Source of the DNA: Escherichia coli
GTDB taxonomy: Bacteria > Pseudomonadota > Gammaproteobacteria > Enterobacterales > Enterobacteriaceae
Strand: one strand, 5' to 3'
Assembly: GCF_003018255.1 (NCBI RefSeq)
Contig: NZ_CP027440.1
Length of the DNA stretch: 64,000 nt
Shown here: positions 23,850 through 40,721 of the stretch, piece by piece
How the letters are laid out: the number at the start of each line of letters is the position of its first letter
Numbering within the stretch: position 1 is the stretch's first letter
The notes under the pieces: model-generated
Seen by the model: only the letters and a program-made list of their open reading frames with translations
Databases searched by the model: none
Told to the model about the DNA's origin: nothing
Position numbers and translations under genes: made by a program

Positions 23850-24168
23850 CGTGGGATCTATGCTGTGAAATCAGCGGTTATTGTGCGATATCGGACACGC
23901 TTTCGGCAATGTGAATTGCATGTTATTTACATTTATGTAACTTAATAAATAATCGTCCTCAAATCAAATTAAAAGTCAATAGGTTGAAATAACTCCAGGA
24001 ATTTGCTGATATTCCGCCTTCAGAGGGTTTGCTATGATCAGCGGTTACTGTGATGTGCTTAATGATGCTCAAGTTAAACTCCACGCTTGCCGATAGCCAA
24101 CCGCAGAATCATGTTTTGTGTCCGGTGCGACTGACCACGCCTGACAGACTAAGTAAGATGGGGAAAGC

Positions 24169-35160: not shown

Positions 35161-37482
35161 ATGATGAATGATTCGTTCTGCCGCATTATTGCGGGTGAAA
35201 TTCAGGCGCGCCCGGAACAGGTTGACGCTGCCGTTCGCCTGCTTGACGAAGGGAATACCGTGCCGTTTATCGCACGTTATCGTAAGGAAATCACCGGCGG
35301 TCTGGATGACACGCAGCTGCGTAATCTGGAAACGCGTCTGAGCTATCTGCGCGAGCTGGAAGAGAGACGTCAGGCGATCCTCAAGTCCATTTCCGAGCAA
35401 GGCAAACTCACTGACGAGCTGGCGAATGCCATCAACGCCACACTAAGCAAAACCGAACTCGAAGACCTCTACCTGCCCTACAAACCTAAACGCCGCACCC
35501 GCGGGCAAATCGCCATTGAAGCAGGGCTTGAGCCGTTGGCCGATCTGCTGTGGAGCGATCCGTCACACACGCCAGAAGTCGCCGCTGCACAATATGTTGA
35601 TGCCGATAAAGGCGTGGCAGATACCAAAGCCGCGCTGGACGGCGCACGCTATATCCTGATGGAACGGTTTGCCGAAGATGCCGCGCTGCTGGCAAAAGTG
35701 CGTGATTATCTGTGGAAGAACGCGCATTTGGTTTCGACGGTGGTGAGCGGTAAAGAAGAGGAAGGGGCGAAATTCCGCGACTATTTCGATCATCACGAAC
35801 CGCTATCAACGGTGCCTTCTCACCGCGCGCTGGCGATGTTCCGTGGTCGTAACGAAGGCATACTTCAGCTTTCGCTGAATGCCGATCCGCAGTTCGAAGA
35901 GCCGCCGAAAGAGAGCTATTGCGAGCAAATCATCATGGATCACCTTGGCCTGCGCCTGAACAATGCCCCGGCGGATAGCTGGCGCAAAGGCGTGGTGAGC
36001 TGGACGTGGCGCATCAAGGTGTTGATGCATCTGGAAACTGAACTGATGGGCACCGTGCGCGAACGCGCGGAAGATGAAGCAATCAACGTCTTTGCCCGTA
36101 ACCTGCACGATCTGCTGATGGCGGCCCCAGCCGGACTGCGTGCAACGATGGGCCTCGATCCGGGTCTGCGTACCGGGGTAAAAGTAGCGGTGGTCGATGC
36201 AACTGGCAAACTGGTGGCGACCGATACCATTTATCCACATACCGGACAAGCCGCAAAAGCAGCGATGACCGTTGCTGCCCTGTGTGAAAAGCATAATGTT
36301 GAACTGGTGGCGATCGGCAACGGTACAGCTTCCCGCGAAACCGAGCGTTTCTATCTCGACGTGCAGAAGCAGTTCCCGAAAGTGACCGCGCAGAAAGTGA
36401 TCGTCAGCGAAGCTGGCGCGTCGGTTTACTCGGCTTCCGAGCTGGCAGCACAGGAGTTCCCGGATCTCGACGTTTCGCTGCGTGGCGCGGTGTCTATCGC
36501 CCGCCGTTTGCAGGATCCGCTGGCGGAGCTGGTGAAAATCGATCCGAAATCTATCGGCGTAGGTCAGTATCAGCATGACGTCAGCCAGACGCAACTGGCC
36601 CGCAAACTGGACGCAGTAGTAGAAGACTGCGTAAACGCCGTTGGCGTCGATCTCAACACCGCTTCTGTTCCGCTGTTAACTCGCGTGGCGGGCCTGACGC
36701 GCATGATGGCGCAAAACATCGTTGCCTGGCGCGATGAGAACGGTCAGTTCCAGAACCGTCAGCAACTGCTGAAAGTGAGCCGTCTGGGGCCGAAAGCCTT
36801 CGAGCAGTGCGCGGGCTTCTTGCGCATTAACCATGGTGATAACCCGCTGGACGCGTCTACCGTTCACCCGGAAGCCTATCCGGTGGTGGAACGCATTCTG
36901 GCGGCGACGCAGCAGGCACTGAAAGATCTGATGGGTAACAGCAGCGAGCTGCGTAACCTGAAAGCGTCTGACTTTACTGATGAAAAATTCGGTGTACCGA
37001 CGGTAACTGACATCATCAAAGAGCTGGAAAAACCGGGTCGCGATCCGCGTCCGGAATTTAAAACCGCTCAGTTTGCCGATGGCGTCGAGACAATGAACGA
37101 CCTGCAACCGGGTATGATCCTCGAAGGTGCGGTGACCAACGTCACCAACTTTGGCGCGTTTGTCGATATTGGCGTTCATCAGGACGGCCTGGTTCACATC
37201 TCTTCATTGTCGAACAAGTTTGTGGAAGATCCGCATACCGTGGTGAAAGCGGGCGATATTGTGAAGGTGAAAGTGCTGGAAGTGGATCTTCAGCGCAAAC
37301 GTATCGCCCTGACTATGCGTCTGGACGAGCAGCCTGGCGAAACCAACGCTCGTCGCGGCGGCGGTAATGAACGTCCGCAGAACAACCGCCCGGCAGCCAA
37401 ACCGCGTGGGCGTGAAGCGCAGCCTGCCGGTAACAGCGCGATGATGGATGCGCTGGCGGCGGCAATGGGCAAAAAACGTTAA
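35161..37482 (+). CDS. tex: Transcription accessory protein Tex/YhgF (HhH, YqgF-like and S1 domains)
   Basis: 773 aa; C-terminal S1 domain [31 protein letters not shown]. Confidence 0.9.
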
Positions 37483-37563
37483 ACGCCCGGACTGGCCCCT
37501 AAACCTGCGCGATTAGGCGTTCACGCCACATCTGGCAACGAACGCCTTGCCTGACATAAAAGT

Positions 37564-37591
37564 GCCGGAGAATATCTCCGGCCTTTTTATT
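37564..37591 (+). terminator. Rho-independent terminator after tex
   Basis: gccggagaatatctccggcctttttatt. Confidence 0.7.
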
Positions 37592-37790
37592 CCACAAGCA
37601 AACTCATAATATATCCCGTTAATATTTATCACTTCATTAACAACTGAAACCTTAATTAAACATTAACCAGCCCTAATAATTCGTCATGCGAATTATATTT
37701 TCGCTGCGATATAACCTTGAGCCATATCAACATTGAGTCAGATTATTATTCAAACCAACATTCACACACATTTTAAGTATTGCTGATAGA

Positions 37791-37811
37791 AACCATTCTC
37801 ATTATCATTGT
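37791..37811. promoter_or_regulatory. Candidate Fur box in feoABC promoter region
   Basis: aaccattctcattatcattg resembles the Fur consensus gataatgataatcattatc; about 110 nt upstream of feoA. Confidence 0.35.
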
Positions 37812-37919
37812 ACTGTTGATTATTTAATCTCTCCTTCGTTGGCAAATCATCTGGTCTCATGTCGCTGTCAAACGCCCCATGAGGTAGTTATCCAGTTAAT
37901 GAGAAACAAGTAGGCACCT

Positions 37920-38147
37920 ATGCAATACACTCCAGATACTGCGTGGAAAATCACTGGCTTTTCCCGTGAAATCAGCCCGGCATATCGCCAAAAACTGCTT
38001 TCTCTAGGCATGTTACCTGGCTCCTCTTTTAATGTGGTGCGCGTCGCTCCACTCGGCGACCCCATTCATATCGAAACCCGTCGTGTGAGCCTGGTATTAC
38101 GCAAAAAAGATCTGGCCTTATTAGAAGTGGAAGCGGTTTCCTGTTAA
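37920..38147 (+). CDS. feoA: Ferrous iron transport protein A
   Basis: 75 aa; [14 protein letters not shown]. Confidence 0.9.
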
Positions 38148-38163
38148 TACGGTGATAACAACA

Positions 38164-40485
38164 ATGAAAAAATTAACCATTGGCTTAATTGGTAATCCAA
38201 ATTCTGGCAAGACAACCTTATTTAACCAGCTCACTGGCGCACGTCAGCGTGTAGGTAACTGGGCTGGCGTTACCGTCGAACGTAAAGAAGGGCAATTCTC
38301 CACCACCGATCATCAGGTCACGCTGGTGGACCTGCCCGGCACCTACTCTCTGACCACCATCTCATCGCAGACCTCGCTCGATGAGCAAATCGCCTGTCAC
38401 TATATTCTGAGTGGCGACGCCGACCTGCTGATTAACGTGGTGGATGCGTCTAACCTTGAGCGTAACCTGTACCTGACGCTGCAACTGCTGGAACTCGGCA
38501 TTCCCTGCATCGTGGCACTGAACATGCTCGACATTGCCGAGAAGCAAAATATTCGTATTGAAATTGATGCTCTGTCGGCACGTCTTGGCTGCCCGGTGAT
38601 CCCGCTGGTTTCAACCCGTGGTCGCGGTATTGAAGCGCTCAAGCTGGCGATTGATCGCTATAAAGCTAACGAGAATGTGGAACTGGTGCATTACGCACAG
38701 CCGCTACTCAACGAAGCAGATTCACTGGCAAAAGTGATGCCTTCCGACATCCCGCTGAAACAACGTCGCTGGCTGGGCCTGCAAATGCTGGAAGGCGATA
38801 TCTACAGCCGCGCCTACGCCGGTGAAGCGTCGCAGCATCTTGATGCCGCCCTCGCCCGTCTGCGTAATGAGATGGACGATCCGGCGCTGCACATTGCCGA
38901 TGCGCGTTACCAGTGCATTGCTGCTATTTGTGATGTGGTAAGCAACACCTTGACGGCAGAACCCAGCCGTTTCACCACTGCGGTAGATAAAATCGTGCTC
39001 AACCGTTTCCTCGGTCTGCCGATTTTCCTCTTTGTGATGTACCTGATGTTCCTGCTGGCTATCAACATCGGCGGGGCGTTACAGCCGCTGTTTGACGTCG
39101 GTTCCGTGGCACTTTTTGTGCATGGTATTCAATGGATTGGCTACACGCTCCACTTCCCGGACTGGCTGACTATCTTCCTCGCCCAGGGCCTGGGCGGTGG
39201 TATTAACACCGTTCTGCCACTGGTGCCGCAGATCGGCATGATGTACCTGTTCCTCTCCTTCCTCGAGGACTCCGGCTATATGGCGCGTGCGGCGTTTGTG
39301 ATGGACCGTCTGATGCAGGCGCTGGGCTTGCCGGGGAAATCCTTTGTACCGCTGATCGTTGGTTTCGGTTGTAACGTACCGTCGGTAATGGGTGCACGTA
39401 CGCTTGATGCACCGCGTGAACGTCTGATGACCATCATGATGGCACCGTTTATGTCCTGCGGCGCGCGTCTGGCTATCTTCGCAGTATTCGCGGCTGCCTT
39501 CTTCGGGCAGAACGGTGCGCTGGCGGTCTTCTCGCTGTATATGCTCGGTATTGTGATGGCGGTGCTGACTGGCCTGATGCTCAAGTACACCATCATGCGC
39601 GGTGAAGCGACGCCGTTTGTCATGGAGCTACCGGTCTACCATGTACCACACGTTAAAAGCCTGATTATCCAGACCTGGCAGCGTCTGAAAGGCTTCGTTC
39701 TGCGTGCTGGTAAAGTGATTATCATCGTCAGCATTTTCCTGAGTGCTTTCAACAGCTTCTCGCTGAGCGGGAAAATCGTCGATAACATCAACGACTCGGC
39801 GCTGGCTTCCGTCAGCCGGGTGATCACCCCAGTCTTCAAGCCGATTGGCGTGCATGAAGATAACTGGCAGGCAACGGTTGGCCTGTTTACAGGCGCAATG
39901 GCGAAAGAAGTGGTGGTGGGCACGCTCAACACCCTCTACACCGCAGAAAATATTCAGGACGAAGAGTTCAATCCGGCAGAATTTAACCTCGGTGAAGAGC
40001 TTTTCAGCGCGGTAGATGAAACCTGGCAGAGCCTGAAAGACACCTTCAGCCTTAGCGTACTGATGAACCCCATTGAAGCCAGCAAAGGCGACGGCGAAAT
40101 GGGTACCGGGGCGATGGGCGTGATGGATCAGAAATTCGGTAGCGCAGCAGCAGCTTACAGCTACCTGATTTTCGTCCTGCTGTATGTACCATGTATCTCG
40201 GTGATGGGAGCCATCGCCCGTGAATCAAGCCGTGGCTGGATGGGCTTCTCCATCCTGTGGGGGCTGAATATCGCTTACTCGCTGGCAACATTGTTCTATC
40301 AGGTCGCCAGCTACAGTCAGCACCCAACTTACAGCCTGGTGTGCATTCTGGCGGTTATCCTGTTTAACATTGTGGTTATCGGTTTGCTGCGTCGCGCGCG
40401 TAGCCGGGTGGATATCGAACTGCTGGCAACCCGCAAGTCGGTAAGCAGTTGCTGCGCAGCCAGCACCACCGGTGATTGCCATTAA
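38164..40485 (+). CDS. feoB: Ferrous iron transporter FeoB (GTPase plus permease)
   Basis: Start [21 protein letters not shown] (G1 motif); 773 aa; multi-TM C-terminal domain. Confidence 0.95.
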
Positions 40486-40721
40486 TGGCTTCACTTATTC
40501 AGGTGCGTGATTTGCTGGCGTTACGGGGCCGTATGGAAGCGGCCCAGATAAGCCAGACATTGAACACTCCGCAGCCAATGATTAACGCCATGCTGCAACA
40601 GCTGGAAAGCATGGGCAAAGCCGTGCGGATTCAGGAAGAACCTGACGGCTGCCTCTCTGGCAGTTGTAAAAGCTGCCCGGAAGGCAAAGCCTGTCTGCGC
40701 GAGTGGTGGGCGCTGCGTTAA
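40485..40721 (+). CDS. feoC: FeoC (winged helix, Cys-rich)
   Basis: Start [11 protein letters not shown] in a TAATG overlap with the feoB stop; CxxGxCKxCPxGxAC motif; 78 aa. Confidence 0.85.

Follow-up and report, generated by a model that had tools for sequence, protein, structure and literature searches.

The AT-rich DNA in front of feoA in the stretch analysed here is, with a probability of about 0.93, the E. coli feoABC regulatory region, in which a weak sigma-70 promoter is covered by Fur sites and accompanied by sites for upstream activators. In the oxygen-poor gut, enteric bacteria import ferrous iron mainly through Feo, and the feo promoter is a textbook case of a promoter joining an iron signal (Fur) to oxygen signals (FNR, ArcA), the logic of which is already known. 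The whole stretch, in the following named the window, comprises 64,000 nt of the E. coli chromosome with the gene order greB-yhgF-feoABC-rpnA. Our own analysis provides the sequence matches with their ranks and chance levels, the conservation and the identity with K-12, and the K-12 literature, for identical sequence, provides the in vivo occupancy by Fur, FNR and ArcA as well as the OmpR gel shift. A preliminary description of this DNA had read a Fur box from the letters alone, which is correct and ordinary, and its central content is already published for K-12; a moderate Fur operator was thereby located by eye and a strong FNR site deviating from the consensus at one position was missed.

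As the Fur sites cover the promoter, Fe2+-Fur bound to two overlapping sites would block RNA polymerase at high iron supply. Since the -35 element is poor, transcription would depend on upstream activators, which signal low oxygen or the state of the envelope. FNR would act from a class I-like position about 90 bp upstream of the start, and ArcA-P and OmpR bind at 37623-37669. Any role of the upstream Fur box at 37732-37750 and of a NagC-like palindrome can be regarded as putative.

Layout of the yhgF-feoA intergenic region

The yhgF gene (tex) ends with its stop codon at 37482 and feoA starts at 37920, which leaves a non-coding gap of 437 bp (37483-37919); the open reading frames of the window agree with the annotation. 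Of 5,426 complete E. coli genomes, 5,425 have a match to these 437 bp, which in some of them is 100% identical, and yhgF on one side and feoA on the other, followed by feoB, feoC and rpnA, is the gene order in K-12 and in those genomes. About 330 bp of AT-rich non-coding DNA had been described upstream of feoA, and this holds for 37592-37919, which has 35.1% G+C compared to 52.3% in the whole window, an AT-richness equalled in only 0.5% of all 328-bp windows, and contains no plausible open reading frame. The whole non-coding gap is longer, beginning at 37483. The first approximately 110 bp of the gap (37483-37591) have 55% G+C and consist of a REP-like element and then the yhgF terminator hairpin, which delimits the feo control region on its upstream side. 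Likewise, the designation “long leader” is appropriate only for the approximately 106 nt that are probably transcribed (37814-37919), while the other approximately 220 bp are upstream regulatory DNA. The features are as follows:

37564-37590, plus strand: intrinsic terminator of yhgF (tex), hairpin GCCGGAGAATATCTCCGGC (37564-37582) and T-run, from a terminator scan
37626-37643 (in block 37623-37669), minus strand: ArcA box TTGTTAATGAAGTGATAA, 15.8 bits, third-best ArcA match of the window, published box in K-12
37626-37642, overlapping the ArcA box: OmpR-shifted motif TTATCACTTCATTAACA, EMSA in K-12
37646-37669, minus strand: additional ArcA-like direct repeats, two 18-mers with 11.4 and 11.8 bits, adjoining the published box
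37675-37697, no strand assigned: predicted NagC-like palindrome AATAATTCGTCATGCGAATTATA with 8-bp arms, between the ArcA and FNR sites
37717-37730, no strand assigned: FNR site TTGAGCCATATCAA, best FNR matrix match of the window, 15.3 bits
37732-37750, no strand assigned: weak upstream Fur-like box ATTGAGTCAGATTATTATT, 6.5 bits, rank 7 in the window, abutting the FNR site
37780-37785, plus strand: putative -35 element TTGCTG, weak (3/6), 17 bp from the -10 element, read from the sequence
37785-37809, no strand assigned: main Fur operator of two overlapping 19-bp sites (37785-37803 and 37791-37809) 6 bp apart, with the segments GATAGAAAC (37785-37793) and ATTATCATT (37801-37809)
37803-37808, plus strand: putative -10 element TATCAT inside the Fur operator, conserved in the alignment, 6 nt upstream of the implied start
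37814-37919, plus strand: feoABC 5' UTR of about 106 nt from the implied start, with the Shine-Dalgarno sequence AAGTAGG at 37908-37914
37920-38147, plus strand: feoA, open reading frame and RefSeq annotation of K-12 and of a strain with an identical intergenic region
38164-40485, plus strand: feoB, open reading frame and the same RefSeq annotations
40485-40721, plus strand: feoC, open reading frame and the same RefSeq annotations

The hairpin at 37564-37582 has a terminator score on both strands. The REP-like element 3' of yhgF (37497-37590) is variable by indels and is 19 bp shorter than that of K-12. Two Rfam matches in this part were rejected: the STnc390 match is the yhgF terminator hairpin and spurious, with 29.6 bits compared to a gathering score of 50 and no match in the orthologous Salmonella region, and the naRNA4 match is sub-threshold and due to the REP-like element.

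The locus is the same as the K-12 feoABC promoter described by Kammler, Schon and Hantke (1993) and in later Fur, FNR and ArcA studies. Published K-12 positions were converted by subtracting 3,500,265 from the U00096.2 coordinate, and this conversion was verified with the FNR site and nine gene-start anchors. Five positions between 37698 and the feoA ATG differ from K-12 MG1655; both sequences agree in the Fur boxes, in the -35 and -10 elements and in the FNR half-sites. At the start region the window has AC for GT in K-12.

Fur operator, FNR site and core promoter

For Fur we used a symmetric matrix of 19 bp, made from 16 K-12 sites for which Table 4 of Chen et al. (2007) indicates a footprint or a gel shift and that were placed by their stated distance to the annotated gene start. 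Among 63,982 window positions the top match is 37785-37803 with 11.6 bits, and the overlapping box 37791-37809 ranks fourth with 7.5 bits. The latter is the Fur-box-like sequence that had been noticed near 37791, AACCATTCTCATTATCATTG being exactly 37791-37810, so that this suggestion is confirmed by the matrix scan as well as by the characterised feo promoter, since it is a K-12 site of Chen et al. (2007) with identical sequence in the window and lies inside a ChIP-exo peak. The centres of both sites, 37794 and 37800, are 6 bp apart, in agreement with the phasing of 3 or 6 bp given for overlapping Fur sites (Chen et al., 2007). Apart from these two and 37732-37750, no further Fur match scoring above 0 was found in the gap. 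Chen et al. (2007) list the K-12 feo Fur sites with 10.9, 13.4, and 10.5 bits and centres corresponding to 37794, 37800, and 37741 of the window, respectively, the 13.4-bit site being centred at 3538065 of K-12 version 2. Their sites cover both boxes that Kammler et al. (1993) had marked, of which the upstream one is covered by the 10.5-bit site that has the same centre as 37732-37750. This upstream Fur-like box is weakly conserved in other genera. By the time of that study no DNase footprint of Fur on the feo promoter had been published (Chen et al., 2007). In K-12, a Fur ChIP-exo peak is located at 3538047-3538080, corresponding to 37782-37815, under iron-replete conditions only (Gao et al., 2023). 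Moreover, a feoA-lacZ fusion is repressed by Fur, which is visible under anaerobiosis, and activated by ArcA and FNR (Beauchene et al., 2015).

The 16 training sites have leave-one-out scores of 16.6-28.6 bits, and all three Fur matches here stay below that range with 6.5-11.6 bits; therefore the operator is to be regarded as moderate and not as strong. Like the classical Fur promoters (fhuA, fepA-fes, cirA, ryhB, sodA), feo has its operator over the -35/-10 region with overlapping sites spaced by 6 bp, but the match is much weaker, with about 8-12 bits compared to 17-27 bits. Unlike them, the feo promoter needs anaerobic activators, and therefore repression by Fur is mainly seen without oxygen.

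The feo promoter was located manually, guided by the implied start and by conservation. Since the feoA ArcA box 3537888-3537908 is given as -191 to -171 (Park et al., 2013), the start is implied to be 3538079, which is 37814 in the window. Taken from one paper's table, the feoA start would thus be near 37814, to within about 2 nt, where the base is a T. Searches of the literature and its supplements yielded no directly documented start site for E. coli feoA. A generic sigma-70 scan found no promoter here, as it needs 4/6 at the -35 element and only 3/6 are present; the TTG of the -35 element is shared by 20 of 21 aligned genomes. The Fur operator overlaps the edge of the -35 element (37780-85) and the -10 element (37803-08) of this putative promoter, and relative to the implied start the Fur sites cover -29 to -5.

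The preliminary description had been unable to place an FNR site with confidence. However, such a site is present at 37717-37730, reading TTGAG-CCAT-ATCAA with one mismatch to TTGAT-N4-ATCAA. With a matrix of 62 ChIP-seq-associated sites from Table S6 of Myers et al. (2013), from which feoA was left out, its score is close to the median of the training sites (15.3 vs. 15.4 bits), the next best match of the window has 11.7 bits, and such a score is reached in 0.7% of shuffles. In K-12 the FNR site TTGAGCCACATCAA at 3537982 is predicted and found at a ChIP-seq peak (Myers et al., 2013), with summits corresponding to 37731 and 37785, and the window differs from it by T for C in the spacer alone (15.3 vs. 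15.7 bits). Activation of feo by FNR is attributed to Kammler (1993) in later papers. The half-sites are near-invariant in the 21 aligned genomes, the final ATCAA being invariant. With its centre at 37723.5 the site is at -90.5 from the implied start. Class II FNR sites are reportedly centred at -41.5 and class I sites at about -61.5, -71.5, -82.5, and -92.5, the last of which is 1-2 bp away from the position found here.

A DNA-pattern scan for a conserved FeoA peptide yielded 120 loci, among them 41 enterobacterial feoA genes with enough upstream DNA, which together with the window make 42. The Fur/-10 core ([CT]ATT[CA]TCATTA..AT) is present in all 42 and is the best or near-best Fur match in each, with scores of 18-21 bits there in many genera. 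Measured from the Fur-site centre, the best FNR site begins 76-77 bp upstream in 30 of the 42 loci, and this spacing is fixed despite a promoter-to-ATG distance of 38 to 125 nt, which supports the view that the spacing of FNR to the core promoter may be a functional geometry. Cedecea, Buttiauxella and a Klebsiella-like group instead have strong FNR sites further upstream, about 130 or 240-260 bp from the core. The alignment of 21 Escherichia-like regions has four conserved blocks with variable spacers between them, namely the ArcA/OmpR region, the FNR half-sites, the -35/Fur/-10 core and AAGTAGG before the ATG. In two Salmonella subspecies the Fur/-10 core, the FNR site and the ArcA block are conserved as in the window, and Salmonella and Shigella feo promoters are under the control of RstA, ArcA, and FNR.

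Upstream ArcA, OmpR, and NagC-like sites

The ArcA box at 37626-37643 has TGTTAA-like direct repeats about 11 bp apart, and it differs from K-12 by G for A, with 15.8 vs. 17.4 bits. For K-12 a published box, a ChIP peak and a 3.7-fold drop in an arcA mutant are on record. The sign of ArcA at feo is disputed, as it is given as repressor in some database-derived secondary tables and as activator elsewhere (e.g., Beauchene et al., 2015). The block 37623-37666 is conserved across genera and, together with the repeats adjoining the box, the sequence suggests that the ArcA site may be a multi-repeat site longer than the published 21 bp. The best ArcA match of the window is located elsewhere, namely AAGTTACATAAATGTAAA at 23926-23943 on the minus strand with 19.1 bits, which by K-12 coordinates is intergenic between nudE and igaA; it is absent from the 114 ArcA boxes read from Table S3 of Park et al. 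(2013), the title of which says 128 boxes and the text of which lists 115 including feoA.

OmpR shifts a feo fragment in EMSA, and the motif distinguishing this fragment is at -294 to -278 from the ATG, which corresponds to 37626-37642 (Gerken et al., 2020). The fragment with an RstA-type motif was not shifted by OmpR in E. coli (Gerken et al., 2020). This TACA-N6-TACA motif is GTACATTCCGTCACA at 37755-37770 in Salmonella and Citrobacter and CCAACATTCACACACA in the window, with an A/G polymorphism at 37764.

The NagC-like palindrome is the top NagC matrix match of the window with 20.0 bits, the ten training operators scoring 17-25, and a FITBAR prediction in K-12 is at the same place. NagC is listed among the feoABC regulators in later papers, apparently from databases, and a binding experiment for NagC at feoABC was not found in the literature. 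The site is polymorphic within E. coli, with three alleles seen that differ in the left arm and the centre: in the allele of the window, which scores 20.0 vs. 18.8 bits in K-12, the 8-bp arms are perfect, as they are in E. albertii, whereas K-12 and two other strains have different left arms and centres. It is an unlikely, speculative idea that the predicted palindrome is a working operator linking ferrous-iron uptake to amino-sugar availability or, as a second and weaker possibility, that the leader segment of about 70 nt, which only Escherichia, Salmonella, Citrobacter and some relatives have, is a post-transcriptional control module. If this applied to the palindrome, its polymorphism would let strains differ in feo regulation.

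Alternative readings and the transcribed leader

The Fur-like sequence could be a chance product of an AT-rich promoter, the block being conserved only as -35/-10 promoter and not for Fur. A count of agreements with the classical consensus of 19 bp, GATAATGATAATCATTATC, would be in line with this, as the box noticed at first reaches 13/19 and so do 12 window positions, some of them coding; the count was therefore rejected as not discriminating and replaced by the matrix. Also by the matrix a single match as good was found in 4.6% of 5000 dinucleotide shuffles of 37592-37919, and the scores are under those of all training sites. However, a pair spaced by 6 bp as good as the one here was found in only 0.26% of these shuffles, and the matches of rank 1, 4, and 7 in 64 kb are all within 78 bp. 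Together with the 18-21 bits at the same position in many genera, the K-12 ChIP-exo peak exactly here under iron-replete conditions only, and the repression of feoA-lacZ by Fur, this makes a chance origin barely credible. A different arrangement has been considered for FNR, which might drive a separate, closer promoter from a class II position (-41.5) with a start near 37765. The non-canonical position of -90.5 and the indirect derivation of the start at 37814 are in favour of it, as are the two promoters proposed for Yersinia pestis feo, but the Y. pestis promoter has no detectable sequence similarity to that of E. coli. Moreover, the sequence at 37753-37758 is AACCAA, with no -10-like hexamer there, the sole nearby -10-like sequence TATTAT (37744-49) would place FNR at about -32, and the spacing of 76-77 bp between FNR and the core in 30 loci points to an action on the core promoter. 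We rejected the class II arrangement, as it has no -10 element at the right distance, and consider it very improbable.

In a further reading, the leader RNA would carry a control element, a hairpin CUCAUG...CAUGAG (37853-37880) closed by a helix of UUCGUUGGC and GUUAAUGAG, that would tune the translation of feoA or the stability of its mRNA. Among Escherichia, Salmonella, and Citrobacter the leader shows high sequence conservation, most long leaders have some central hairpin, and precisely this highly conserved segment of about 70 nt is missing in Enterobacter and Leclercia. However, the leader is predicted to fold no more stably than its shuffles (z = +0.10 over its full length, z = -1.0 for the hairpin, mean z = 0.04 for 23 species), RNAalifold gave no consensus structure on 22 leaders, and two helices proposed by eye have no covariation beyond column shuffles (81.6% vs. 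80.3% paired). Rfam found no family in the leader, the sub-threshold matches all being outside of it, and nothing on control by the E. coli feoA mRNA leader was found in the literature. Hence, there is no evidence for leader-RNA control, and a functional hairpin of this kind is quite improbable. A seven-codon open reading frame (37859-37882; ATG TCG CTG TCA AAC GCC CCA TGA) is located inside the leader hairpin region; as an upstream open reading frame it was rejected, having no Shine-Dalgarno sequence and no conserved frame. The AAGTAGG in front of feoA is near-invariant, GTAGG being invariant and one A varying in one genome. Within the Enterobacteriaceae, feoA leaders are between 38 and 228 nt long.

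The reading as Fur-covered promoter with upstream activators can also be compared with Y. pestis, the feoABC of which is, like that of E. coli, a Fur-regulated operon with putative FNR and ArcA sites. It shows no aerobic iron repression, whereas the E. coli promoter is iron-repressed even in Y. pestis. Within E. coli, 37700-37830 has at least 95% identity in 99% of the genomes, and the adjoining 131 bp (37569-37699) have 80-95% identity in 79% of the genomes. The upstream differences are concentrated at two places, directly behind the terminator and within the NagC-like palindrome, in its left arm and its centre. This hypervariable upstream segment, the polymorphic NagC-like site and the rigid spacing of FNR to the promoter are minor leads of the analysis.
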